Source: Candidatus Babeliales bacterium (lineage in GTDB: Bacteria; Babelota; Babeliae; Babelales; JANWKD01). From it: a stretch of 64,000 nt of DNA. Under the pieces are notes generated by a model. That model worked only from the letters and a program-made list of their open reading frames with translations, had not been told where the DNA came from and searched no databases. The DNA is taken from assembly GCA_963762115.1 (NCBI GenBank), contig CAVXJH010000005.1, forward strand, positions 113,812-177,811, read 5' to 3'. The first letter of the stretch is position 1. Each line of letters starts with the position of its first letter. The position numbers and the translations under genes are program-made. Below, in pieces: positions 46,004-64,000 of this stretch.

Positions 46004-47122
46004 ATGATCGACACCATAGTTTTTACGTTAACCAAAGACAAGTTCAACATCATTCACCCCGATAAATTCCAGCCCTCTGCAACACTTTTGTTATCAACGC
46101 ATTCTCACACAATCCAAGCAAAACAAAACCCAACACGAAAAGAACTCCTGAAAGGGGAATGCAAGCCTCGTTTAACATTGCAAAAGCGCATTAACGCTCA
46201 AGGGTTATTTGATCTCATGTTAAAAGTTGAACTTTCTTTGCCAAAGCTTTTGTTTGGCAACAATGTTGATGAACTTTGTTATAAAGATTTTCCAGCGATC
46301 ATCAAAAAATTAGGTGCTGTGCTGCAGGAAATGGGTATTGGGACAACGGCAGAAGCCCTAGAGAATGCGCCGCTCTCTAGCGTTCATTATGCAAAGAATA
46401 TCCCTCTCACTGACGGCTCTACGCCCTATCATTTCATCAACAAAATCAAAGAAGCGAATATCAAAATCTCTCTAGATACCAATCAAACGGATTATCGCAA
46501 CGATGGCCACAGTTATAAATGGCATTGCAATTCATATGAAGTTGTTTTCTATGACAAGCTTCTGGATTTGGAAAAAGCAAAGAAGAGCAGCAAGAGATCA
46601 ATTGATAAAGATAGTGCAATGAACCATTCGCCCTTCCCCTTTTTGGAAAAAAAAAAGAAATTTGAGATCCTTCGCATGGAAGTTCGATTGAACAAACGAC
46701 AAAAAATTAAACAGTTATTTAAAACGCTGGGAATAAAATCAGATTTGACGTTGAAGAAGTTGTTTAAGCCTGCCATTGCAAAGAAAGTTCTTTTGCATTA
46801 TCTCGATGAGCTTGAATCAAAACGACCTTCATTGCTTGATTATAAATCAGATAATGAAACAGCATTGCTTGCTGATTTAGTTTTCTATAATCCTGAGTTA
46901 AGCCCAACGAAGATTTTGCAACTCTTTGGATTAAAGCAAGCGCTGAATAGTATGAGCCCTAGAGAGTTAAGAATGCTGTTTGCAAAATACAATCAAAGAG
47001 CCTGGTATAAATTGATGGCTGATGCAAACAAGGTAAAATTACCCAATTCACATCAGCCATTAGAAATTATTCGTCAGCAATTGATCATTTTTAAGCAATT
47101 CAAAATAACCAAGAATGTTTAA
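46004..47122 (+). CDS. Replication initiator, phage/plasmid gpII/X (CRI)-like, copy 2
   Basis: Same motifs as 39465; highly similar paralog. Confidence 0.75.
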   Translation: MIDTIVFTLTKDKFNIIHPDKFQPSATLLLSTHSHTIQAKQNPTRKELLKGECKPRLTLQKRINAQGLFDLMLKVELSLPKLLFGNNVDELCYKDFPAIIKKLGAVLQEMGIGTTAEALENAPLSSVHYAKNIPLTDGSTPYHFINKIKEANIKISLDTNQTDYRNDGHSYKWHCNSYEVVFYDKLLDLEKAKKSSKRSIDKDSAMNHSPFPFLEKKKKFEILRMEVRLNKRQKIKQLFKTLGIKSDLTLKKLFKPAIAKKVLLHYLDELESKRPSLLDYKSDNETALLADLVFYNPELSPTKILQLFGLKQALNSMSPRELRMLFAKYNQRAWYKLMADANKVKLPNSHQPLEIIRQQLIIFKQFKITKNV

Positions 47123-47128
47123 AATTTA

Positions 47129-48730
47129 TTATTTACGCACAACATTATAAACATATTTATTTTTATGATGAGGTCCTTGCTCAACCATGGGAGATTTGCC
47201 ATTTACATAAACAAACGTACTTGGTAAAGGCAAATCAGAATCCTTGTTCTGTTTAATAAATTCAACTTGTGCTCTGAAATCTTGGTTTATCTCGCAAAGA
47301 GCTTCCATTAGTTGCCGATTCAATTCCTCTATACTTGTATGCATATCATCAATATCTATATCTTTTTTGAGTTCAATCCAAAATTCAAGTTGTTGATCAA
47401 GTTTATCATTTTCAAATTTATTAAATGCATAACGATTTATTTTTTCATATAAACCAGGTACTTTTAAAAGAGCGCGTTCAAGATCATCATACATTAAATT
47501 AGCACCATTAAACGTTAATGCGTCATCACCACGACCATATAAACACAAGATAGGCAAACTGGTGCGTGGCGTTAACTCAAAACCATGTTTTTTAAGAAGA
47601 TCTTTAACAACACTGACTTTAAATACCTTACCTTTATCCCCAAGATCGTAACGAACTCTTGGTGACACGCGTGATTCATCAAGGTCAGTAAATAACAAGC
47701 TGCCATCTTCTGTTTCTTCGATATAATCAAGTAAAGGATTGAAATGGAAAAAAATTGGCGTACCATCGAGAGAACCTAAGAGCTCTTTTTTAAACTGAGG
47801 ATTTTCTTTGCACAATAATTGCAATTTTTGTTCAAATTCTGTTTGCTGTGCAATATTAATACGCAAATCACTAGCGCCATAAGAAGAATATACTTCTTTA
47901 ATACCGCTTTTTTTAATACTATTGTAGACATTCTCAGACATTGCTTCACCACCAACAACAATAGTAATATCATAATCACGCAAATCAAACGGTGCATTTT
48001 CTACAAATTTTTTCATGTGTGGTGGATATCCTGCAATCACATAACGTTGACCTGGACCAATATCTTTGAGCGCATCATATAACTTATCAATGTCAGGACC
48101 AATTGATAATATTAGTTGACTGCCTGTAAGCGCATATGTTGATGTCATACCCGTTGCCCATGTACCTAGTGCAAACATGTTGCAAAAGATATAGGGCTTA
48201 TCGCCTAATGCAGCTTTACTTGCTACACGAATCCATGCTTTAACATTTTCCATCTCTTGATGACCGCGTACCCATTTAGTAGGTTTTCCAGTTGTACCAG
48301 TAGAAGTATCAATTTGTCCTTGCAAAGGAAGTTTTCCAAATAATAGTGTTTGTTCAATAGTATATTTCTTAATATAATTTGATTTGCTCATCAGAGGAAC
48401 ATTTTCTAAAGAATCAGGCACTCCTGGGGGACAGTTGTTATCAACAAAATCTTTATAAGCAGGAACATTTCTATATGCCTTCAAAAATATTCTTCTCGCC
48501 TTCAATTGCGAAAGGAAAAATAACGTCTTTTCAGGGGCATGGGCGAACAGAGAAGGATAGCGCACTGAAACTGAAGAAAGTACACTCGATAATTTTCCAA
48601 TAGCAGTATCGCGAACTTGAAACAGCATATCTTGAACGTCGCAAGATTTATCAGAAGAACAAATACTGATATTTTCCATTGTAAGAAAAAGCAATGTGAT
48701 AATTATTTTCTTTGTTATAGATAGTTTCAT
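47129..48730 (-). CDS. Phenylacetate-CoA ligase-like (ANL superfamily) protein with signal-like leader
   Basis: AYRNVPAY, TSTGTTGKP, GGE, YGASD, RYDLGD.G, GR.DD. Confidence 0.85.
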   Translation of the reverse strand: MKLSITKKIIITLLFLTMENISICSSDKSCDVQDMLFQVRDTAIGKLSSVLSSVSVRYPSLFAHAPEKTLFFLSQLKARRIFLKAYRNVPAYKDFVDNNCPPGVPDSLENVPLMSKSNYIKKYTIEQTLLFGKLPLQGQIDTSTGTTGKPTKWVRGHQEMENVKAWIRVASKAALGDKPYIFCNMFALGTWATGMTSTYALTGSQLILSIGPDIDKLYDALKDIGPGQRYVIAGYPPHMKKFVENAPFDLRDYDITIVVGGEAMSENVYNSIKKSGIKEVYSSYGASDLRINIAQQTEFEQKLQLLCKENPQFKKELLGSLDGTPIFFHFNPLLDYIEETEDGSLLFTDLDESRVSPRVRYDLGDKGKVFKVSVVKDLLKKHGFELTPRTSLPILCLYGRGDDALTFNGANLMYDDLERALLKVPGLYEKINRYAFNKFENDKLDQQLEFWIELKKDIDIDDMHTSIEELNRQLMEALCEINQDFRAQVEFIKQNKDSDLPLPSTFVYVNGKSPMVEQGPHHKNKYVYNVVRK

Positions 48731-48929
48731 TCTTTTTTGCCTCTTGAAAATTTATATCTGAAATAATTTAAAAAATAAAATAACTAATTAATAATATTAT
48801 TATGAATGATATATAAAAAAAATCAATAATCGTCCTTATAGGACTCTATTTACAAACTATCTACCCTCTCTCCACCCTTCATGATAAGCTATAGAACATT
48901 TAAATAATACCATAACTATGAGTACTATC

Positions 48930-50384
48930 ATGAAAGCAATTTTAATCGCTCGTGTAAGCACAGAAGAACAAAAAGAAGCTGGCAATTCTCTTCCAGCACA
49001 AGTAGCTCGCCTAGAAAAATACTGCCAAGTCAAAGATTTTCCAATCATTAAAAGCTTTAGCTTTGATGAAAGTGGTTATAAAAACCAACGAGAAGCATTT
49101 GATGCAATTTTAGATTTCGTCCTAGAGCAAAAAGAAAAAGTAGCCGTATGCTGCGACAAAGTAGATCGCTTGTCGCGAAATATATTCGATAAACGAGTTT
49201 CCACGCTCTATGAAAAGGCATTGCAAGATCAACTAGAGTTACATTTTGTTTCTGATGGACAAGTTATTAACAGCCGCATTTCAGCCGTTGAAAAATTTCA
49301 ATTTGGGATCAGTTTAGGATTGGCAAAATATTATTCTGATGCCATAAGCGATAATGTTAAAAGAGCCATAGAGCAAAAATTGCGCAAAGGCGAATGGATT
49401 GCCAAAGCGCCCTATGGTTATAAAAATATCCTTCTAGGGGATAAAAAAGATATCTGTGTTGATGAGTATGCAAAGCACATTGTGCACAAAGCTTTTGAAT
49501 TATATGCAACGGGAGCTTTCTCTTTTGAGCTTTTATGCAAAAAAATGAAAGAAGATCATAACATTGTGTGGAGTGTGAGTTATATTGATAAAGTTTTTAA
49601 TAACCATTTTTATTATGGCGTTATGGTCATTAAAGGCCAACAGTATCCTCACAAATATCCACCCATTATTTCTCAAGCACTTTTTGAAAAGGTTCACCTC
49701 ATGAAAAAAAGCCTTAATAAAAAACAAAGTAGATATGCAGGAAAGCCTTATCAATATCGTGGGCTTTTGCGTTGTGATGATTGCGGATTTGCCATTACAC
49801 CAGAAAAGCACAAAGGGCATGTGTATTATCATTGCACAGAATTCAAAGGCAAACATGGCGCAAAATGGCTGCGAGAAGAAGCAATTACTGAACAATTAGG
49901 AGCTATTTTTAAAAGCTTACAAATGCCTGAAGATGTTTTAAAGCAGCTTTCTGAAACATTAACTGAAGTGCATGAAAACAAAGCTGCCTTTCAAGCAAAA
50001 CAATTTGATGCACTTACCAGGGAACAAAAAGAAGTCACGAAAATGATGGATAATTTATACCTTGATAAACTCAAAGGGAGAATTACTGAGAGTGCGTATG
50101 ACAGATTTTACCAAAAGTTCAGAGATCAAACCACCGATATTTCTATTAGATTAGAGCAATTACAAGAAGCAGAAGATAACTACTATATTACCGTGAAATA
50201 TCTGCTAGAGCTAACAACTCGAGCTTATGATTTATTTATGGGTTCGGAAGTGGAAGAAAAAAGGCAATTAATCAAACTTGTATTATCGAACTTGAGACTT
50301 AAGGGTGAAAACATCGTCTACGACGCGCATCAGCCCTTTGATTTGATACTAAAAAGTACTGATGAACAACTATGGCGTCCCTAA
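48930..50384 (+). CDS. Large serine recombinase (integrase); stop codon inside tRNA-Glu
   Basis: ARVSTEEQ, DRLSR, PYGY, Zn ribbon (CDDC..HC), coiled coil; ends EQLWRP*. Confidence 0.95.
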   Translation: MKAILIARVSTEEQKEAGNSLPAQVARLEKYCQVKDFPIIKSFSFDESGYKNQREAFDAILDFVLEQKEKVAVCCDKVDRLSRNIFDKRVSTLYEKALQDQLELHFVSDGQVINSRISAVEKFQFGISLGLAKYYSDAISDNVKRAIEQKLRKGEWIAKAPYGYKNILLGDKKDICVDEYAKHIVHKAFELYATGAFSFELLCKKMKEDHNIVWSVSYIDKVFNNHFYYGVMVIKGQQYPHKYPPIISQALFEKVHLMKKSLNKKQSRYAGKPYQYRGLLRCDDCGFAITPEKHKGHVYYHCTEFKGKHGAKWLREEAITEQLGAIFKSLQMPEDVLKQLSETLTEVHENKAAFQAKQFDALTREQKEVTKMMDNLYLDKLKGRITESAYDRFYQKFRDQTTDISIRLEQLQEAEDNYYITVKYLLELTTRAYDLFMGSEVEEKRQLIKLVLSNLRLKGENIVYDAHQPFDLILKSTDEQLWRP

Positions 50385-50450
50385 GGGGATTCGAACCCCT
50401 GTTTTCGCCGTGAAAGGGCGGTGTCCTGGACCAGGCTAGACGATAGGGAC
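50373..50450 (-). tRNA. tRNA-Glu(TTC), integration target
   Basis: Cloverleaf GTCCCTA..TTC..TAGGGAC-G-CCA. Confidence 0.95.
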
Positions 50451-50495
50451 GCATATTTTTTATGTCAAAAAAGGTGATTTCTTAGTCTCGTGTTA

Positions 50496-50585
50496 AAGAC
50501 TGGCCCCTACTACGCCAAAGCTACGAAGGGCAGGCTTGCCAGTCGAAGTTTGCCGAGCCGGAAGGCCCGGATAAACGAAGACTGG
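50496..50585. repeat. Nested REP-like palindromes attached to the tRNA-Lys CCA end
   Basis: AAGACTGGCC..CTACGCCAAAGCTACGAAGGG..GCCAGTCGAAG..CGAAGACTGG. Confidence 0.8.
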
Positions 50586-50658
50586 TGAGCCGCGATGGAT
50601 TCGAACCATCGACCCACAGCTTAAAAGGCTGTTGCTCTACCAACTGAGCTAGCGGCTC
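50583..50658 (-). tRNA. tRNA-Lys(TTT)
   Basis: GAGCCGC..TTT..GCGGCTC-A-CCA cloverleaf. Confidence 0.95.
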
Positions 50659-50961
50659 TCATTCTTAAATAGATTAAGAATAGATTTCGAAATCAATGAC
50701 ATAATACTAGTTATTTCAACTATCTTTGTCAAGAAATTAGTAGAAAAAAATGCCTTTTACTCTATTTTCTATCATAATAAACTGAATAATATAATTTATT
50801 TAGCATCATAAAAATTACTCATCTTTAAGAGTGCTTTTTTTACTAAAGATATTTGACTTTTAAATAGCTAAAAAACAATTTTTATTGAATTATAACTCTT
50901 ATTATATTACCATGCCCCTAATAAAAACATTTAAATTATTATCTTCAAAAAAAGGGATACA

Positions 50962-51612
50962 ATGCCATCTAAATATTTATTATTTCTACTCTTTGGTTTT
51001 ATCAATTTTTCCACACTTTTTTCAATGAATGAAGAAACTGATACACAAGAAAAAAATATATCATCTCTAAACGAGATTATTATTAAAAAATGCTTATCAC
51101 AAGAAGATGAAAAATATGTATCGGAAGAAGAATTCTTCACAATGGCCCAAGCTCATATTGAAAAACCATATTCCATAATGAAAGGAGGTGTAGGAACAAC
51201 ATTGTCATATCGTACAAACAAAGCAGGCAAATCTTATCAATCCAATCACACTATATATTTTAGCCACAAGGTATTAACAGTATATATTTCAACACATGAT
51301 GGAGAACAAAAAGCATTTATGGGGACACCGAATACTTTTTTTGATTTTGAACGATTTATAAATAAACCAATTGCAGTGGCAGTTGCAATTTTACATTCAA
51401 GAAAAAAGAAAAATTATATTTCAGGTAAAATGTTTACCCTTGAGGATCTTTTTTCTCAAATAAGTTCAAAATTAGACATAAATAACTTAAAAAAATACTG
51501 GATACAAAGCTCTCATGAATATCCTCAATCAGTAGCGACTATTTTAAAACCTGACAATAAATCATATATGCTCCTTGAGGATGGTCAAACAATCAATTTT
51601 CATAATTCTTGA
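50962..51612 (+). CDS. Secreted hypothetical protein
   Basis: Signal peptide then SMNEE. Confidence 0.7.
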   Translation: MPSKYLLFLLFGFINFSTLFSMNEETDTQEKNISSLNEIIIKKCLSQEDEKYVSEEEFFTMAQAHIEKPYSIMKGGVGTTLSYRTNKAGKSYQSNHTIYFSHKVLTVYISTHDGEQKAFMGTPNTFFDFERFINKPIAVAVAILHSRKKKNYISGKMFTLEDLFSQISSKLDINNLKKYWIQSSHEYPQSVATILKPDNKSYMLLEDGQTINFHNS

Positions 51613-51614
51613 GA

Positions 51615-51667
51615 AAAAAATGAGGTGGGCAGTTATGAATTTTTATCACAACTGCCCACCTTTTTTT
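51615..51667. terminator. Bidirectional intrinsic terminator
   Basis: AGGTGGGCAGTT..AACTGCCCACCT flanked by A/T runs. Confidence 0.8.
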
Positions 51668-51680
51668 GTATTAATAACTT

Positions 51681-52220
51681 TTATTGTCGTGTTGCTCGTG
51701 CATAAGCCCTTCTTCCTCGACCACGGCCTCCACCATGTCGACGACGTCCATGCCGACGGCCTCTACCCCACTTTTTACCAGGAACTTTTCGTTTCATGCC
51801 GCATTTTTCACCCTCACATTTAACTTTATACGTGACAGGTTCTCCTGCTTTTCCAGCCTGAGTTGCTTCTAGGCGCTTACGATATGCTTCCATCATTTGG
51901 GCTCTTCGTCCCCCTTTATGATGACCTCTTCTTCCCTTAATTTTACAGCGGCCGCCCTTGCATCGAATCTTGCTACGTTTCCTGCCAAGGCCTTTGCGCT
52001 TCATAGCACATTTTTCTTTATCACAATTAATTTTAAAGGTGGAAGGTTCCTCTGCTTTTGCAGTTTCACTACCTTCTATTTTCTTAAGCAAATCTTCACC
52101 TTGTGCAGCAGGCACAACACCGCGTCTTTTTCTTCCTTTAAAACGACATTTACCGCCTCTACAACGAATCTTATAACCTTTTTTTCTTGCTCCTTCTGGC
52201 TTTGCTGCAACTTCTGCTTC
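51681..52220 (-). CDS. Highly basic protein with four K[IV]xCxxxxC repeats, 5'-truncated at the junction
   Basis: Repeats KIRCRGGKC, KINCDKEKC, KIRCKGGRC, KVKCEGEKC separated by R/K/G stretches. Confidence 0.7.
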   Translation of the reverse strand, partial: EAEVAAKPEGARKKGYKIRCRGGKCRFKGRKRRGVVPAAQGEDLLKKIEGSETAKAEEPSTFKINCDKEKCAMKRKGLGRKRSKIRCKGGRCKIKGRRGHHKGGRRAQMMEAYRKRLEATQAGKAGEPVTYKVKCEGEKCGMKRKVPGKKWGRGRRHGRRRHGGGRGRGRRAYARATRQ

Positions 52221-52229
52221 AGTAGAGCA
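52221..52229. other. Bacterium/chloroplast junction
   Basis: The bacterial ORF and the plastid tRNA are both cut here. Confidence 0.85.
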
Positions 52230-52289
52230 GTCTGGTAGCTCGCAAGGCTCATAATCTTGAAGTCGTAGGTTCAAATCCTACTCCCGCCA
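52222..52289 (+). tRNA. trnfM: Plastid-type tRNA-Met(CAT), probably trnfM, missing the 5' acceptor strand
   Basis: D arm, CAAGG-CT-CAT-AA-TCTTG and T arm present; the 5' partner of TCCCGCC is absent. Confidence 0.85.
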
Positions 52290-53176
52290 AAATAGAATAA
52301 AGATTTTTCAACCATTTCATCACTTTGTCATCGTTTTGCCTGCAAAATGAAAAAGTGGAACAAGTTGAGTAGAAGAAATTAACAATTACAACTAAAATAA
52401 TAGAAATACAGTGGTTTGGCACAAACTTGTTTTCTGTTTTGTTCACTTGCTCACTTGTTCAGTTTGCCTCATCACTTTGCAGGCAAAGTGAAACAAAGTG
52501 ATGGAGCAAGAAAAAATTTCTAAAAGGATTTGCTATTTTTAAATCGATAAAAATACTCTTTCACTCTACAAGAAAAGAGGTGGCCTTATACATTTTTTAG
52601 GAGAACAAGCTACAAAACACTATACAAACTCTTGACACGGGAAGAGTGTCAACGGTCTTCATCAATAGAATTGAGAACAAGGTGCCCTTTCGTTCATTGT
52701 ATTAACGTACAATGTACACCAGGACGGTTAAAAAAAAGATCCTCTTTTTACTGTACTAATGAGTTGCATTTCTCTTTGCTCTTAGAGGCATCAGAGATGG
52801 TGTTGTAGGGGGCCTGACTCAAAAAGCCACTGCCTCTCGTGATCCTTTCTTTACATTTTTGTAGTGTCATTGTACTAACGTACAATCTTAATTAGCATCT
52901 TTCTACATCCATTTGCTACCGCAAATGGATGTAGAAAGATGCAACCCACAAAATGGATAAGGCCGGGAGTAAGGGGGTTTCGATGGCCACCCAGTTGCAT
53001 TGCCATAGATTCTTGAATGAGAATCTTAAGGCAATGCGAAAGGCCTTATCCATTTTGGTTACAAAATGTAAAGAGGGGGCTCCTACAACACCCAAAAGCA
53101 AATAGATGTAAAGAGGTGACAGAAACAAAATGGTAGAAGAGTGACGGGAAAAAGGTTTATAAAATAAGGAGAAGAC

Positions 53177-54880
53177 ATGTCTATCTTAGCTTGGATTGAA
53201 GACCAACGCAAACTCAAATTGCTTAATGCACCTAAATACAATCAGCCACCTTCTGATGGAAGCAAAGGATTATGGACAAGATGCGACAATTGTGGGGTAA
53301 TCCTTTACATTAAGCACTTAAAAGAAAATCAACGTGTCTGCTTTGGTTGTGGATATCATTTACAAATGAACAGTCAGGAACGAATAGAACACTTGATTGA
53401 TGAACAAACATGGCGACCATTAGATGAAACGCTTTCACCTGGTGACCCATTAGAATTCCGAGACCAAAAACCTTATATTGAAAGGTTAAAAGATGCCCAA
53501 GAAAAAACAGGCCTACAGGATGCAGTCCAAACAGGAACCGGAATGTTGGATGGTATTCCAATCGCACTGGGCATTATGGACTTTCATTTTATGGGAGGAA
53601 GCATGGGCTCGGTCGTTGGAGAAAAAATTACTAGATTGATAGAGTATGCTACACAAGAAGGGTTGACGTTAGTCCTTGTTTGTGCGTCAGGTGGAGCTAG
53701 AATGCAAGAAGGGATTTTCAGCCTCATGCAAATGGCAAAGATATCAAGTGCTTTACAAATTTATCAATCATGTGCCAATTTGCTGTACATTTCAGTTTTG
53801 ACTTCTCCAACGACTGGTGGCGTAACAGCTAGTTTTGCCATGTTAGGTGATCTTATATTTGCCGAGCCTAAAGCACTTATAGGTTTTGCTGGGGCGAGAA
53901 GTTATCGAACAAACATTGCAAGAAGATTTGCCAGATGACTTTCAGACATCGGAGTACTTGCTCCACCACGGCTTGCTTATCTCATTGTTCCCCGGTGCTT
54001 TTTAAAGCAGGCACTGTCTGAAACAATAACTTTGTATAGAGATGCCCCATTTAAACAGAGTGGACACATACCTTATGGCGTACAGAATCCACTCTATTTC
54101 TTGACTGAAGAGAAGGTTCGACGGAAATGGCAACAAGACGCACATCTTTTTGGCGGGGCTTCCTGGGTTCAGGCTGCTTCACAGACCCAAAGTAATCCTT
54201 TTCTCGCAAAGGGTGAAGGATTCGCAAATAGTTCAACAGCAGGTGGTGAGGAAGAGCTTGGAGCAGAAGCGAGAAACTTTAAAGATTCTCTTTCAACATC
54301 ATCTGCCACCTCTTTTACTGATAGTAATCCCCCCTCTTTACATTTTACAAAGAAAATGGATAAGGCCGGGGGTGGCCATCGAACTCCCTCTGCTTCCAAC
54401 AACTTTAAGACTCACGACCAAACTCATCATTCTCCAGCTACACAAGCAGCTTCTATATCAGAGCCGACTGATCAAAGTTTTACTAATCTCCTAGAGACGT
54501 GGTTAGCAGATTCTTCATGTGATGAAACTTACAGAGACATATTAATGTCATTTGACACTATGTTTAATTTGGTCGCACAGAAGGGTGCATCAGAAATGAT
54601 TCCATCTGTTGGAAGCAATACCGACGATTTTAGTTTCGTGAACCATGAAAACATAGTCTTAAACGAATCATTCTCTCAAACAGAAGAGAGCAATAAATCA
54701 TACGACAATTGTAAACCCTTCACCGAAGGTAAAGAGGTTTCCTTCAATCAATCCCTTTTGCTAGAAGCCGGCGAGAAGGTTAGTTGGCGAGCCTTTTACG
54801 CAAGTCAAAAAGGCAGTCCAAAGGCCCATTTTCTCCAATATTTAAGTTTCATACAGAGACGAATTCGCCGGCTCGGCTAA
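53177..54880 (+). CDS. accD: Plastid acetyl-CoA carboxylase carboxyltransferase beta subunit (compensating indels ~53894 and ~53979; long C-terminal extension)
   Basis: [58 protein letters not shown] lies in the shifted frame. Confidence 0.93.
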
Positions 54881-55393
54881 CCACTCGAGATGGGAGTGAT
54901 TCTACAAGCGAGTCTGAGGGTTACGAGAGACCAATGTCAGTGGCTTCGAGGTCCGTCGAATATAAAGTCCTGGAATAGAGAAAAAGTTTTTTTATAAAAC
55001 AAGCAAAAAGGATTCCTAAAGATCATGTTTTTTTACACCCATTAGCTTTGGGGTGTTGTCTACCCCTAAGGGCCTTTACCACTGTACTAGCGTTTTGAGT
55101 CTTGTAAGGGGCCTTATCAGACCCTTCAGCTTTTTGCTTTAGCCTCTTGGGTTATTGCATTGCTTTAAGATTCTCAAATGAGAATCTATGCTGATTAAGA
55201 TTGTACTTCAGTACAATGACAATGCTAAAGGGGCCCCTCCAACACCATCTCTGATGCCTACAAGACCCCAAAAGCTTACGCTTCTTACTTCTGCCTCTTG
55301 GGTCTGGGAACACCCTCTCTGATATCTTTAAGTTTGTAATATAGACGCAAAAACTGCTTTAGTTAAAAGAGATTGTACGTTAGCATGCTGGTT

Positions 55394-56095
55394 ATGAGTA
55401 TTTTAATTGAAAATTTATCCAAAACGTTTGGCCAGTTTACGGCATTAAGCTCTATTAATTTAGAAATTAAAGCTGAATCATTAGTAGCGCTTGTTGGTGG
55501 GTCAGGTTCAGGCAAGTCCACTTTGTTACGAATCATTGCGGGTTTAGAAACGCCTGATGAGGGTCGTATTTGGTTATCCGGAAGAGACGCAACGGCTCTT
55601 TCGGTTCAGGAACGGGAAATTGGATTTGTCTTTCAAAATTATGCTCTATTTAAAGACATGACTGTGTATGAAAATATAGCTTTCGGCCTCGATATCCGAA
55701 ACCTTACTAATACAACTGTTAAAAACAGAGTAACTCAATTGCTACAATTGGTTCAGCTAGAGAAGCTCTCTAGCCGATATCCAAACCAATTGTCCGGTGG
55801 TCAACGGCAAAGAGTAGCATTGGCACGCGCTTTGGCAGTAGAACCAAAAGTTTTATTACTAGATGAACCTTTTGGAGCTCTCGATAGCAAAGTGCGAAAA
55901 GGACTACGTCAATGGCTACGACAACTACATGATCAGGTTCCTGTTACTACGGTCTTTGTTACGCACGATCAGCACGAAGCGCTGGAAGTAGCGAGTGACA
56001 TAGTGATTCTTCAAAAACTAAATAGATCAAATGGGTTCGCCGCAAGACATGTACCATTTTCTTTACTCTCCTTAACTCTTATAAACATCTTGTAG
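55394..56095 (+). CDS. cysA: Plastid sulfate ABC transporter ATP-binding subunit (3' frameshift ~56017, true end uncertain)
   Basis: [35 protein letters not shown]. Confidence 0.88.
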
Positions 56096-56770
56096 TGTCA
56101 TATTCATACATCTATTCATTTTGTGGTCTTGTAAGCATCACAGATGCTGAGGCTTCTGCCTCTTGGGTCGGGGTTTCGACGGCCACCTGATGCATTGCCT
56201 GCAATGCAAAAGGCCAGCGAAGGGGCCCCTCCAACACCATCTCCGATGCCTACAAGAGCGAAGAAAGATGCAACCCCCTCGTTCGTACGTTTTTGTAGAA
56301 AACATAAAAGGGGTGGCCATCGATACCCCTTCGCTCATTGTACGTTAGTGCAATGGTTTGTAAAAAGGGCATTTCTAATGTCATGGATAAGGACCTCTAC
56401 CGTTGCTTTAAGATTTTCATTCGAGAATCTAATTAGGTCTTTGCATTGCTTTAAGATTCTTGAATGAGAATCTATGCTGATTAAGATTGTACTTCAGTAC
56501 AATGACAATGCTAAAGGCCCCTCCAAGACAATGCAACTACCCCTAAGGGTTTCACTGACTACTCCTTCCAACACGTCAGTACAGTAAAAAGAAGAGGCTC
56601 TAAAAGGGTATAACTTCTCTTAATGCAAAATACGTACAGGTACGACTTTTTTTAAAAATTGAATTTCACCCCATTGCCTTAGTGTACAATCTTTTATATA
56701 AATGGAATTAATATCAGAAATTGTTGTACAATGTATTGTGTACATTTAAAAAGAAAAAAACCAAGCTGGT

Positions 56771-57275
56771 ATGCCACGATCACAACGAAATGACAACTTT
56801 ATAGACAAGACATTTACCGTAGTAGCAGATATCTTATTAAAAGTTTTGCCTACGTCATACAGAGAGAAGCAAGCCTTTATGTATTATCGAGACGGAATGT
56901 CTGCTCAGGCATCTGGTGAATACGCAGAGGCTTTACAGAATTATTATCAAGCAATGCGGTTTGAAACTGATGCTTATGACAGAAGCTACATATTGTACAA
57001 CATAGGATTAATACATACAAGCAACGGAGAGCATGGACGGGCATTAGAATACTATTACCAAGCTTTAGAGAGAAACCCTTCCCTTCCCCAAGCTTTAAAC
57101 AATATAGCTGTTATTTATCATTTTCGAGGAGAACAGGCTATTGAAAATGGACAGCCCGAAGTAGCTTCTATGCTTTTTGACAAAGCAGCAGATTACTGGA
57201 AAGAAGCTATTCGATTAGCCCACAAATTATATTGAAGCCGTCAATTGGCTAAAAATGAGTCAACGACTGGATTAA
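56771..57275 (+). CDS. ycf3: Photosystem I assembly protein Ycf3 (indel ~57221)
   Basis: [15 protein letters not shown]; TPRs; [11 protein letters not shown] in the shifted frame. Confidence 0.95.
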
Positions 57276-57527
57276 TTGATTACAGCAGAAAAACCAGCTT
57301 TTGGAGGCATCTGGGATGGTGTTGGAGGGGCCCTTGCGATTATCCATTTTTTACAAAAATGAAAGGGGGTTTCGCTGGCCCCCCCTGGCCTTATCCATTT
57401 TGTTTACAAAATGTAAAGAAGGGGTGGCCATCGAAACCCTCTACCTTTAGCCCCTCCAAAGTAGAAGAAGAAGAGGATTATATTTTATAATGAGAAAGTA
57501 GATCTTAATAAAATGGCAAAGAGAAAA

Positions 57528-57599
57528 CTCCTCAGGTAGGACTTGAACCTACGACCAACCGGTTAACAGCCGGTCGCTCTACCACTGAGCTACTAAGGA
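57528..57599 (-). tRNA. trnN: tRNA-Asn(GTT)
   Basis: Cloverleaf, no encoded CCA. Confidence 0.93.
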
Positions 57600-58200
57600 C
57601 TCTCTTATCATTGTACGTTAGTACAATAAGACGAGGTAAAGGTTAAAATTAGTTTCATTCTATTATGAGATTGTAATAGAAAGTTACAAAAAATACAACT
57701 TTGCAATGGTACGCTTCTAAAAATACCCTTTTTCTTTGTGACACAAAGAAAAAGGGTATTTTTGAGAGTCGTCTGCAAGACAAGGGACCAACACTGCCAA
57801 GCAGCAGCGGCCAAAGACAGAGAACTTTTTACAAAAAAAGGTGTCTTTAAACCTTTTGTTTTCAGGACGAAACCATTTGTATAACATTCTAATTTATCGA
57901 AAAAAGCAACACTAGAATTACTTAAAAATTTTTGAGCTTGAAAGTTGAATCGGTGTTCCAGGGTTTTTTAATATCTATTGCATTAGAAAATCTTCCTATG
58001 GTATACTTATTACTTATTCAGTGCATTTTGTAAACTTAATACTAAATTTTAGGATTTACAAAGTGAAAACGTTAGGACCCTCCTTTTACCGTACTAACTA
58101 GCGTACTAACACACAATCTTTTTATAAAAGATACATCTTGTAGATTGCTCTGTTGTTTGCTTTTAGCCGAGATGACACTACAAGATATTAGAAAAGTCAA

Positions 58201-58283
58201 GGGTCGATGCCCGAGTGGTTAATGGGGGCGGATTGTAAATCCGCTGGCGACTGTCTACGCTGGTTCAAATCCAGCTCGGCCCA
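58201..58283 (+). tRNA. trnY: tRNA-Tyr(GTA)
   Basis: GGGTCGA..GTA, long variable arm..TCGGCCC-A. Confidence 0.93.
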
Positions 58284-59610
58284 AATTATATGTCTCATTT
58301 TTCCTATTGCTATTAGAAACACATGTTAGTAGGATGTGACGTTTTCCCTTCACTCTTTTAGCATCTTCTAGTGTCAAGAGTGAGAGAAATGCAACTCACA
58401 AAAGGGTTTGTAAAAGTTGATGTGGATAAGGCCTTTCACATTGTCTTGGAGGCATCGCAGATGGTGTTGAAGGGGCCCTTAGAGGTAGGGGTTTCGATGG
58501 CCACTCGGTTGCATTGCTTTAAGATTCTCGCATGAGAATCTATGACAATGCAAAGGCCTTATCCATTTTATTTACAAAATGTAAAGAAGGGGTGGCCATC
58601 GAAACCCTCGGCCTTATCCATTTTGGTTACAAAATGTAAGAGGGGGCCCCTACATGACCCAAGAGGCTTTTTTCAAGTTACCAAAAAAAGGGCCCAAAAG
58701 CTATCACTTCTTTACATTTTGTAACCAAAAGAGAAAATTTTTCACTAACTTGCTTTTTAAGGGGATTCTCGCTAATTATTGTTTAATACGGTATTATATC
58801 TATATAACAAAAGATTTTTAAGAGCTTCGTGGTAAATGCTCCAGGAACAAGTGAAAAAAACTAGAAGTTTGAGCTTATTGAAGGACCATTCTTCGATCAC
58901 TAAGATTATACTTTAGTACAATGATATAGCACAAATACTGAGGCATATGCCTTTGGATACTAAAAATTAAAGTTGGTAGGGGAGGCTAACTCCTCACCAA
59001 CCTTATTTATTACAAACCAAATTATTTAGGTAACTTCTTTTAAAAACCATTCTTGCTGATTAAGATTGTACTTTAGTACAATGATATACACATACACATT
59101 TAAACTAAGTAAAGTGTAAATCTTTTTAGATTTAAAAAAAGAAGGTAATGCGTACAACTAGCAACAAGCTCCAAACTAGTTGCGCTATGATACAGATTTG
59201 GCTTGCCACGTGCAACCCCTTCGCTCATTGTATGTTACAAAGAGGCTCCTTATTTTCAATTTTATTGATGAAGGCTATCAAACCCCTTCGCTCATTGTAC
59301 TAATTCGGGTAGGGGTCTCGCTGGCCACCCAATGCATCGCTTTAAGATTCTCGCATGAGAATCTATGACAATGCAAAAGGCCTTATCCATTTTCTTTTAG
59401 AAAATGTAAAGAGGGGGCCCCTCTTTACATTTTCTAAAGAAAATGGATAAGTACAATCTTAATTAGCATAGGTTTTTGTAGAAAACTAAAAGGGGTTTCG
59501 TTGGCCACCCCTGACCTGCGAAGGGGTGTCCATTGAAACCCCCTTTTTACATTATTAGACAAAATTAATTAATGTTAATTGCGGCTGTTTTATTTTTTAT
59601 ATAATTCATT

Positions 59611-59730
59611 ATGGTTGAACCCTTATTATCTGGCATTGTATTAGGACTTGTACCAGTAACACTGGCCGGCTTGTTTGTTACTGCATATTTGCAATACCGT
59701 CGCGGTGATCGTGTCACAAGCTCTTTTTAA
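59611..59730 (+). CDS. petG: Cytochrome b6f subunit V (not in the ORF track)
   Basis: [33 protein letters not shown]. Confidence 0.97.
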
Positions 59731-59905
59731 TAAAAAAGCTGTTCACTCTCTAACATCTTGAAATCTGATCTTCGCTCTTAGCGAAGATGAAGAAGGGGAT
59801 CCTTTCTTTTAACTTTTTTAGATTTATAAAGGTTATGAGATCGTGTCAATAAAGGTAACTGTCGAAGAAAAACGTGGCAGCAAAAATTCTAAGAACCTTT
59901 CTATT

Positions 59906-60001
59906 ATGATAACTGTTATAAGCTACATTAGTATACTTACTAGCTTCTTGATTTTCACAACAATCGTCTATTTAGGATTGCTAAAAATAAAACTTATTTA
60001 G
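59906..60001 (+). CDS. petL: Cytochrome b6f subunit VI (not in the ORF track)
   Basis: MITVISYISIL...YLGLLKIKLI*. Confidence 0.9.
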   Translation: MITVISYISILTSFLIFTTIVYLGLLKIKLI

Positions 60002-60701
60002 CCTTATTAGGTATTGGCTTGGGCTTGATTTTTAATTGTCCCCCCTTACCTCAAGTATTTTTTACGTCTCTCCCCTTTGCTCATTGTACTAATTGGGGTA
60101 GGGGTTTCGATGGCCACCCCCGGCCATCGAGGGGGCCCCTCCCAAGTACAATCTTAATTAGCATCCGTTTTGTAAAAAACGGAGAAGGGGTTTCGATGGG
60201 CCCCCCCTGGCCTTATCCATTTTGTTTACAAAATGTAAAGAAGGGGTGGCCATCGAAACCCCTTCTTAATCTTTATATTGTGTTGTAACAAAATAGTCAC
60301 ACCTTAGCTACACTCTAGTACAGACTTCAAGGGAAAAGACTGTTCAATTCTTAATGTACCGCTGCATTGAGGGGGCCTTGCATTATAAACAATGCTAAAG
60401 GCCCAAACTGCTTGTTTAGGTATTTTAGAAAAGATCACGCTTTTAATGTCTTAACGAAGCCTCTTGGGTCTTTGCATTGTCTTGGAGGCATCGCAAATGG
60501 TGAGGCTCCAGCCTCACCATCTGTGATGCCTCTTTCCATTTGGCTAACAAAATGTATAACGCTATCTGTGATGTCTCAAACGAGCGTTATGCGTTAATAA
60601 CGTAATTAATAAGCAACGTTTATCTTTTTTATAACAATTAATATTGTTATCGGTTGCTTTTACTGTAAAAGCTGGTATAATTGTTATTATTATTGAGACA
60701 A

Positions 60702-60775
60702 GGGCTTGTAGCTCAGTGGACTAGAGCACGTGGCTACGAACCACGGAGTCGGGGGTTCAAATCCCTCCTAGCCCA
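60702..60775 (+). tRNA. trnR: tRNA-Arg(ACG)
   Basis: GGGCTTG..ACG..CTAGCCC-A cloverleaf. Confidence 0.93.
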
Positions 60776-60963
60776 TTGTCATCAACCTTATAAACACTGT
60801 TGATATTACTCTTTTATTACTCTTTTATCATTCTTTGAACAAAGAGTGAGAGATCTAAAAACTAACGTGTTATACATTGCTTTAAGATTCTCGAATGAGA
60901 ATCTATGCTGATTAAGATTGTACTTCAGTACAATGACAATGTACAAAAGGTCTAAAGATTTTA

Positions 60964-61771
60964 ATGAATACAACGCGTACTATTGTTATTACTTCTGGAA
61001 AGGGAGGAGTTGGGAAGACGACAGCCACCGCAAACTTGGGCATGTCAATAGCTCGTCTTGGACACAAAGTCGCTCGAAAGATGCAGATATAGGACTGCGC
61101 AATTTAGATCTGTTGTTAGGGTTAGAGAACCGTATATTATATACAGCAATGGACATTCTTGATGGCCAATGCCGTTTAGATCAGGCAATGATTCGTGATA
61201 AAAGATGAAAAACTTATCGCTATTATCAATTTCAAAGAATAGGCAACGGTACAATGTAACACGTAAAAACATGGAGAACCTCGTAGCCTCTATCAGTAGT
61301 CTTGGATACAACTTTATTCTTATAGATTGCCCTGCGGGAATTGATGTAGGTTTTATTAATGCTATCTCGCCAGCACAAGAAGCTCTTGTAGTTACGACTC
61401 CTGAAATTACTGCAATAAGAGACGCAGATCGAGTAGCTGGGTTGCTGGAAGCTAATGGCATCTTTAATACCAAATTATTAGTTAATCGAGTCCGCACTGA
61501 AATGATACAGAACAATGACATGATGTCTGTAAGAGATGTTCAAGAGATGCTAGGTATTCCGTTATTAGGGGCTATACCTGAAGACACACATGTTATTATT
61601 TCCACAAACCGAGGTGAGCCGCTAGTTCTCAAAAAGAGATTGACACTTTCGGGAATTGCATTTGAAAATGCGGCTCGCCGTCTAATAGGGAAACAAGATT
61701 ATTTTATTGATCTGTCTTCTCCTTACAAAGGATTATTCCAAAGGTTTCAAGACATGATTTTTGGTGCATAG
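60964..61771 (+). CDS. minD: Plastid division ATPase MinD (frameshifts ~61075 and ~61207; start uncertain)
   Basis: [33 protein letters not shown] and RDADRV distributed over shifted frames. Confidence 0.92.
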
Positions 61772-62512
61772 AAGACGTTTAGGTTGATCGGAGATGGTGT
61801 TGGAGGAACCCTTAGGGACATGACCCAAAAAGCCTCTTTATATGCTTTAGAAAAGATGACGTTTTAACGTCCTAATGTGGGAAGGGGGCCCCCTTGCTGG
61901 CCTTTTGCATTGTCATTGTACTGAAGTACAATCTTAATTAGCATAGATTCTCATGCGCGAATCTTAAAGCAATGCATCGGGTGGCCATCGAACCCCCTAA
62001 CCCCAAAAGGTTACGCTTCTTGGTTTAGCCTATCGGGGGCCCGCAACAAACCCCAAACAATGAACAAGTAAACAAACAAAATGGTTTGTAAAAGATGACA
62101 TTTTTAATGTCATGAACAAAGCCTTTTATAGAGGGTAAAGCCGGGTCCCCGTGGTACCAGACGTCAACGGTTCTAATAGTCTACTGCTTCACCAAAAGTT
62201 TTAAAAGAAACCTTGTTTTTTTGAGTTCGGGATTTGATGGCCACCCCTTCTTTACATTTTGTAAACAAAATGGATAAGGCCTTTCGCATTGCCTGCAATG
62301 CAACTGGGTGGCCAACGAAGCCCCTTCTCCGTTTTTTACAAAACGGATGCTAATTAAGATTGTACGTTACTACAATGAGCGAAGGGGCGGTCCTACAAAG
62401 CATCCATGATAGGTGATGTGTCTCTAAACATTTAAAGTAGCCCCTCTTAGTTACATTTTGTAAATGTATTTCAATCTCTTGGAGGGGACCCAACGGAATG
62501 ACATGTAAATTT

Positions 62513-62701
62513 TTAAACTACAAAAGAATTAAGTACACCTACTAAGAATACTAGCAAAACCCATAACCCCAACCCTGAGAACACGGTCCCTTTGTTCTCT
62601 GTCCATCCTTGAGGTGAGGCAAATGCTACGGGAACTCCTACTACTAATACGAAAGACAATCCAACAAATGCAAACAGGGCTAACTGGAAAAGAAGAGTCA
62701 T
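62513..62701 (-). CDS. psbZ: Photosystem II protein Z
   Basis: MT..FQLALFA..LVVGVPV.FASP.GW..NK..VFSG..LW..LNS. Confidence 0.96.
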
Positions 62702-63700
62702 ATGTTATTAATTAAATGGTTATCCATTTTGTAACCAAAATGTAAAGAGGTGAGACAGGAAATCAAAGCTTAACCTATCCGTTTGCTGTCTTATTAAACC
62801 CAAAAATATATTTGATACACATCAAATTGTTGCATCGCTTTAAAAATTACTAAGATTACAAAGTAACGCAAGCAAATCGATTTGAGTATTGGAAACGAGG
62901 GTAAAGGCCTTCGAATGTATCACAATGCAACTTGGAGTCAGGCTGCCCTTTCCGGCATCTTCCAAGAAATTTGAGCTTTTTGCTTACACTTGTTTGATCC
63001 CTTATATTACCTTAAATTTTCTAATGATACAAAATAATCTTAAGGTTAGGCAACAGCTTTAAGAAGAGTTGCTCTGTAGATCACTTCTTCGCATTTTGTA
63101 AACAAAAGGCGACGTAATATACAGAGCACCATAGAGTAGCAAATAGGTGCAATGTTGCAAGATAATCTAACTAAGATTATTTTAAACAACAAGAAACGTG
63201 ATTTGTTCTGTATTTATACACAAAGGTTTTAAAATATTTACTACATTACAGCAAATAGAAATTCCAAAATCTAAAGTCTTTCTAATATGTCATAGTATTA
63301 TTCTATCCGTAATGGACACATGAGGCTCTCTTGCGAAAGACAAACCATCGATTGTAGATACCCCCCTAAGAGAAACGTTAGTACAATGATCGAGGGGGTT
63401 TCGATGGCCACCCGATGCATTGCTTTAAGATTCGCGCATGAGAATCTATGACAATGCAAAAGGCCAGCGAAGGGGTCCCTCCAAAACCATTTGTGATGCC
63501 TCAGCACAATGGTAAAGGCCTTATCTTTTAAGCTACTTAGTAACATCGTTGCGCTAAGGTCTAAGATTTGAAAGATCTTCATGAACAGATTGTAAAAATT
63601 CACAATCTCTTGTTAGGTAAATTTCCAGAAAATCTTTGATATAGTATGTAGTTGACAGAGATAAAGCATCTAAAGTATTATAAGACAGGTATAATCTGGT

Positions 63701-63771
63701 GCGGTACTCGTATAATGGTAATACCTCAGTCTTCCAAACTGAAGCCAGGGGTTCGATTCCCCTGTACCGCT
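63701..63771 (+). tRNA. trnG: tRNA-Gly(TCC)
   Basis: GCGGTAC..TCC..GTACCGC cloverleaf. Confidence 0.9.
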
Positions 63772-64000
63772 TGTTGCCTTGCCTCTATAACAAAGATGGT
63801 AGAGAGAGCAATTATTTGTGAATAAGAAATTTGCTTTTAAAGTCGCGTTCTTAATTTCAGTAATAGAACCAATAGTGATCGTACCAAGATTACTAATTCT
63901 TTATTTTTTTGAAAAAAAAAGTGGTGCCTGAAACTATAGCTTTCCTTATTAACTCATTTCATTCTTGTAACAATTCATGTAGTGTATAACGTTTTAACGT

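Follow-up and report, generated by a model that had tools for sequence, protein, structure and literature searches.

A green-algal plastid segment at the end of a Babeliales contig is best explained as the foreign half of a chimeric long read

At the end of one contig of a Babeliales genome, bacterial DNA passes directly into the plastid DNA of a green alga, which raises the question of whether this fusion records an uptake of organelle DNA by an intracellular bacterium or arose during sequencing and assembly. The window, that is the whole stretch of 64,000 bases analysed here, corresponds to positions 113,812-177,811 of contig CAVXJH010000005.1 (hereafter C5; 177,811 bases, no Ns), one of 7 contigs in a 1.53-Mb assembly (G000), and its final base is also the final base of C5. 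The junction sits between 52222 and 52223, two bases off the position of ~52221 given in the initial annotation. Genes on both sides are cut abruptly, with no filler, repeat or duplication and with no shared sequence on the plastid side, which is the checkable one. Coverage by open reading frames falls across the junction from 0.83 on the left to 0.30 on the right; the shift in GC content is small (~0.33 to ~0.39), so that GC alone scarcely marks the junction.

On the bacterial side, the window retains the 3' part of a Babeliales gene on the minus strand (51681-52222; 180 codons plus the stop codon), the product of which is rich in Lys, Arg and Gly and contains Cys-x4-Cys repeats. The frame stays open right up to 52222. 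The full-length homologue in the congener G001 (a single 1.337-Mb contig) has 221 aa, carries a hydrophobic N-terminal leader and is 52% identical to the truncated product over 192 columns, in agreement with the initial description of a basic ORF that had lost its N-terminus. About 48 N-terminal codons are missing from C5, 12 of them likely lying at the start of contig C6. The family occurs in 2 of the 41 genomes searched, namely G000 and G001, with two copies in the latter, and has no Pfam match. Four Cys-x4-Cys units, a very basic composition and the hydrophobic leader characterize the gene (window 51681-52222, minus strand; L002, 1339-2004; L003, 1468-1884), and judging from these sequence features it may encode a secreted protein that binds nucleic acids or membranes.

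The right-hand part of the window is a plastid tail of 11,778 bases (52223-64000) that reaches the last base of C5, as delimited by its terminal position and by matches to public contigs. It begins within a tRNA-Met(CAT) gene (52223-52289, plus strand), presumably of the initiator type to judge from its stems, the first 7 bases of which are gone; the match to Rfam RF00005 (52223-52281, 43.2 bits) covers model positions 8-63, confirming the loss of the 5' acceptor strand that had been noticed initially. There follow, on the plus strand, accD (53177-55020; 614 aa in the alga, located by tblastn of P0001) with four 1-base indels at 53891, 53978, 54850 and 54963, cysA (55373 to approximately 56100; TIGR00968 above cut-off) with indels at 56018-56019 and 56083, and ycf3 (56771 to approximately 57270; NF002725 positions 1-152 of 173), which continues in another frame past a shift near its 3' end. 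Further to the right are tRNA-Asn(GTT) (57528-57599, minus), tRNA-Tyr(GTA) (58201-58283, plus), a petG-like ORF of 39 codons (59611-59730, plus), petL (59906-60001, plus; PF05115, E 6.6e-7), tRNA-Arg(ACG) (60702-60775, plus), minD (60964-61771, plus; TIGR01968 positions 79-260) lying in three frames with shifts near 61076 and 61205, an intact psbZ (62513-62701, minus; PF01737 and TIGR03043) and tRNA-Gly(TCC) (63701-63771, plus). The plastid gene set named initially was recovered by profile HMMs for accD, cysA, ycf3, minD and psbZ; petL, at 29.6 bits, fell slightly under its cut-off of 30.1, and the 39-codon ORF, recognized by eye from its translation, is a putative petG. None of the five tRNA genes examined to the right of the junction encodes its CCA, as had been stated, and both of the left-hand tRNA genes do. 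Three full 3-kb blocks of the tail rank 8th-10th of 508 as tetranucleotide outliers. The plastid spacers (52600-63600) contain many dispersed repeats of 30-130 bases plus short palindromes, as a result of which the public contigs of the alga are broken into many pieces.

As to the source of the tail, AccD agrees at every one of its first 238 residues with a 614-aa protein of the P0001 cluster, found on 14 contigs of up to 207,543 bases. Among named AccD proteins, that of the trebouxiophyte Coccomyxa subellipsoidea C-169 (YP_004222027.1) comes closest, with 96% identity over 238 aa, a one-gene assignment that backs the Trebouxiophyceae-like origin suggested at the outset. The two proteins also have a long C-terminal extension in common, although the full AccD is only 72% identical over 480 aligned residues. 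Retention of accD, cysA and minD together is taken as diagnostic of Trebouxiophyceae-like plastomes, and here all three are kept beside photosynthesis genes and tRNAs without encoded CCA; a putative origin from a Coccomyxa-like trebouxiophyte plastome is thus supported. A metagenome scan with AccD returned relatives at 46-60% among the matches listed, the alga's contig not being among them.

The alga itself was found in moss, wood-decay and plant metagenomes. Among the 24 public runs listed, 20, from 15 studies, hold 0.41-0.43 of the words of 49200-55200, the remaining 4 hold shares of 0.00-0.02, and none holds half. When 7 of the 20 were compared with the window, all covered the plastid side and essentially none covered the sequence left of the junction; these runs derive from other samples than the source, and the absence on the left says nothing about the junction. 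Public algal contigs begin to match at 52223 in four of four runs (two contigs of run X9 do so 1-2 bases earlier) and run on leftwards with bases that differ from those of the window. A 307-base contig of run X5 matches 52223-52357 without a difference and extends 171 bases further left, where it supplies the 7 missing bases of the acceptor strand; the alga's genome is therefore ordinary here, and the copy in the window merely begins at base 8 of the tRNA.

By comparison with the gene order of G001, the chromosome's real continuation appears to be the start of C6, that is elsewhere in the assembly, as would be expected of an artefact, without a direct overlap. Best matches of G001 proteins along G000 run in the order C6, C5, C7, C3, C6, and C6 gives way to C5 after RNase HII (G001 216,897; C6:3,398-2,676) and before the basic protein (G001 217,982; C5 ~165,500-166,033). 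Read on the minus strand, the first bases of C6 hold an ATG and 12 open codons, at which point the contig breaks off. This stretch and the start region in G001 are reciprocal best blastn matches (47 of 63 bases at E 2e-4, the best of 560 and of 579 hits), a correspondence that is modest if taken alone. The second G001 member of the family follows a DUF1254/DUF1214 gene, the G000 counterpart of which (C6:107-1518) lies directly upstream of the C6 ATG, and the C6 start is likely to be the missing start of the truncated gene. Since no contig overlaps the C5 break, the join between C5 and C6 rests on synteny and on the short, AT-rich match. If lengths are conserved, ~35 codons (~100 bases) would be missing between C6:1 and the junction. 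A tblastn search of G000 with the N-terminal 62 residues of the G001 protein gave only unspecific, signal-peptide-like matches, consistent with the middle of this stretch lying in an assembly gap. The DUF1254/DUF1214 gene is a single ORF in G001 and is split in G000, which suggests thin read depth near the break. Plastid DNA was found neither on C6 nor on the other contigs of G000, the tail matching only itself and one tRNA elsewhere.

The tail also differs from the bacterial part of the assembly in its errors. Sampled against public contigs (10 listed pieces, X5 and X15; 8,975 bases), it departs from them by 23 substitutions and 21 gaps (0.49%), and at several places the changes fall in adjacent clusters (53122-53123, 53898-53899 and 63215-63217). 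The runs are mostly concordant with one another at the sites where the window differs. All four accD indels are absent from X1, X2 and X5 and three of them from X15 (depth 3), the one run of four that sides with the window at 54850; the cysA indels are seen relative to all four runs, and minD shows 2 gaps in the public pieces that cover it. Despite its four frameshifts, AccD has a single in-frame amino-acid change among the first 558 residues. Across ~3.9 kb of plastid coding sequence there are at least 9 frameshifts (accD 4, cysA at least 2, ycf3 at least 1, minD 2), compared with 14 frame changes, in 9 genes, over the 532,842 bases on which 472 conserved G001 proteins were mapped in G000, and none in the 10 conserved bacterial genes within the window. 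This contrast of ~90-fold is overstated by an uncertain degree, because the bacterial count, taken as tblastn frame changes at ≥60% identity, misses compensating pairs. A raw-read error profile therefore stands beside polished host sequence, and not an insert as accurate as the host consensus that diverges mainly by substitution, as would be expected of a real insertion. Neutral decay is not expected to produce indels as often as substitutions; indels that are about as frequent as substitutions, and partly clustered, would be more readily explained by an unpolished long read than by strain divergence or by neutral decay.

C5 is not the only contig of this assembly with a foreign end. The first 4,953 bases of C7 have a GC content of 56-69% and carry a second, frameshifted set of rpoB and rpoC, presumably planctomycete-like; the genome's own rpoC lies at C7 ~120,000 and is 53% identical over 105 aa to the copy in the tail, the source of which is an unrelated high-GC bacterium. 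Two blocks of this tail rank first and second of the 508 three-kb blocks as tetranucleotide outliers. The first 671 bases of C3 overlap C7:4,955-5,626 at 97.6%; C3 then carries a bacterial frame without interruption past the junction, and the assembly therefore directly contains the true path for the C7 tail. A third, short foreign tail is formed by the final 250 bases of C4 (C4:7650-7900), in which the GC content jumps to 56-76%. Contig ends are irregular in other ways as well. C4 and C1 match C3/C6 and G001 only at 64-81% and in patches, and may derive from another relative, and C2 matches C3 only across its last 90 bases. The 3' ends of C3 and C6 share a 918-base overlap at 97.5% yet remained separate in the assembly, and no overlap was found between the 3' end of C7 and the 5' start of C5. 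Conserved genes within 800 bases of the 3' ends of C3 and C7 are frameshifted, and the last 13 bases of C7 resemble what we take to be the start of a nanopore ligation adapter.

Together, these observations make it highly probable (around 90%) that the plastid tail is the foreign portion of one chimeric long read, hence an assembly artefact and not a gene transfer. The reading is built on the terminal position of the tail, its error profile, the synteny with G001 and the sister tails; the sequencing platform (from the pattern of errors), the single-read support and the low bacterial depth that go with it are ones that we infer. Two unrelated DNA molecules would have been joined in library preparation, or read as one molecule. 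With bacterial read depth probably thin, no other read would have bridged the ~100-base gap between C5 and C6, the assembler would have extended C5 along the chimeric read to that read's end, and the foreign half would have stayed unpolished because only one read supported that path. The foreign segment is indeed terminal and ends with the contig, as a chimeric tail would. The artefact favoured in the initial annotation can accordingly be narrowed to a contig tail that a chimeric long read produced, and one of the routes offered there, a concatenation of contigs, is rejected, since the junction lies within a single deposited contig without Ns.

Comparable artefacts are documented, as far as the available parts of the two reports go, both for contigs in which a single chimeric nanopore read caused a misassembly (10.1101/866020) and for cross-domain chimeric contigs in long-read metagenomes (10.1101/2025.04.22.649783). 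In the former, the accessible text on the Drechmeria coniospora assemblies describes an abrupt junction without sequence bias or repeat that was exposed by comparison of assemblies, much as here; that case was traced to one very long chimeric nanopore read and confirmed by reads, whereas the single read is inferred in ours, and both halves came from one fungal genome, unlike the two domains of a metagenome joined here (10.1101/866020). The multi-domain contigs of the latter resemble C5 in joining domains with a shift in composition and in gene-level taxonomy, but according to the portion of the survey available they were found with PacBio HiFi reads and read clipping, in contrast to the terminal, indel-rich tail with a small GC shift described here (10.1101/2025.04.22.649783).

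An assembler could also have made the junction without any chimeric read, if a spurious overlap or a shared minimiser had led it to connect the bacterial tip with a plastid tip of low depth, which would still be an artefact but seems rather improbable here. Assembler-made chimeras, some of them cross-domain, are reported even with accurate reads in the accessible part of the same survey (10.1101/2025.04.22.649783), and contig ends in this assembly are noisy, the C3/C6 overlap being an example. Against this, the alga has other bases than the window to the left of 52223, and no overlap that could have driven the joining is visible on the plastid side. The junction also falls in a unique gene, and the tRNA-Met that the genome itself encodes is on C6 and shares only 79% identity; a misjoin mediated by the tRNA was rejected. 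Still less credible is an origin through the tRNA-anchored integrative element to the left, whose serine recombinase gene (48918-50384) might have captured plastid DNA or inserted it at a tRNA site; this is the least probable of the explanations considered. The junction does cut a tRNA gene ~1.8 kb from the recombinase gene, but the recombinase ends at the 3' end of a tRNA-Glu (50373), with cargo that appears to extend leftwards, and G001 has the recombinase (94.6% identity) ~9 kb from the intact basic gene with no plastid DNA, so that capture by the integrase fails. The tRNA that is cut is the alga's, broken at base 8, and the cargo is not bounded by duplicated attachment sites of a target tRNA, no duplication being seen at the junction. 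Within 46004-50450, the recombinase gene is followed further left by a gene for a 372-aa protein without a Pfam family and by a Gp49-like gene. A related recombinase adjoins tRNA-Gln on C3 (~125,900-127,400), with a fragment at C5:155,655, and a 533-aa ORF without a Pfam match (47129-48730, minus) is presumably a lookalike of phenylacetate-CoA ligase-type adenylating enzymes.

The biologically more consequential alternative is that an intracellular Babeliales bacterium very recently took up 11.8 kb or more of plastid DNA from a green alga and received it in its chromosome, inside a secreted-protein gene, with the gene disrupted, ~100 bases deleted and the insert now decaying. If true, DNA would have passed from an organelle to a bacterium, and the parasite would be located in an alga or in a protist that feeds on algae, but we consider it very improbable. 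A real insertion into the basic gene would likewise have left that gene split between two contigs, and Babelota are strictly intracellular in protists, with about a quarter of the co-occurring protist taxa being phototrophs according to the available text of PMC12172432. Host DNA does not flank the plastid segment on both sides, however: no second junction is present, the tail ending with the contig and C6 starting without plastid bases. The 21 indels against 23 substitutions are unlike neutral decay. The window's substitutions lean weakly to G+C (21 versus 9 in X5, p 0.04, repeats counted), the usual substitution bias being toward AT. The segment is not shared with relatives, although a recent event would look the same: all three family-level relatives (G001, G003 and G004) have only short matches of tRNA length (55-72 bases), and 200 other genomes of the order hold no credible psbZ, the search giving two weak matches, of which the one above cut-off is the leader of an unrelated ORF. 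Two further foreign tails in the same assembly also speak against an insertion. A narrow open-access literature search, covering titles and the starts of abstracts, returned no reported case of plastid-to-bacterium DNA transfer. Insertions of plastid DNA are familiar from the nuclear and mitochondrial genomes of plants, as NUPTs and MTPTs. These resemble the present segment in being plastid fragments with broken genes within a foreign replicon, but they are flanked by host DNA on either side and fully backed by reads, whereas the bacterial case shows a single junction, placed where a contig ends.

The known hosts of Babelota are heterotrophic protists, with some co-occurrence with phototrophs, and the part of the source available contains no word starting with 'Trebouxio' (PMC12172432). 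The suggestion that the alga might be the host, or the prey of the host, found nothing in its favour beyond co-occurrence in one DNA extract. As the C7 tail comes from an unrelated high-GC bacterium, the chimera partners look random, and since metagenomes of moss, wood decay and plants all contain the alga, and the second large tail is bacterial, the pairing carries no host signal.

The fusion is thus real in the file and very likely not real in the cell. It carries no weight as biology but matters as quality control: a species-representative genome that is 95.3% complete and 3.1% contaminated nevertheless includes ~17 kb of foreign sequence attached as tails to genuine contigs. With C5 trimmed at 166,033 and C7 at ~4,954, the four large contigs fall in the G001 order round one chromosome. 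Left in place, the foreign psbZ, ycf3, accD and minD, together with four surplus tRNAs and the second rpoB-rpoC pair, could wrongly be taken for signs of horizontal transfer or of metabolic abilities in Babelota.
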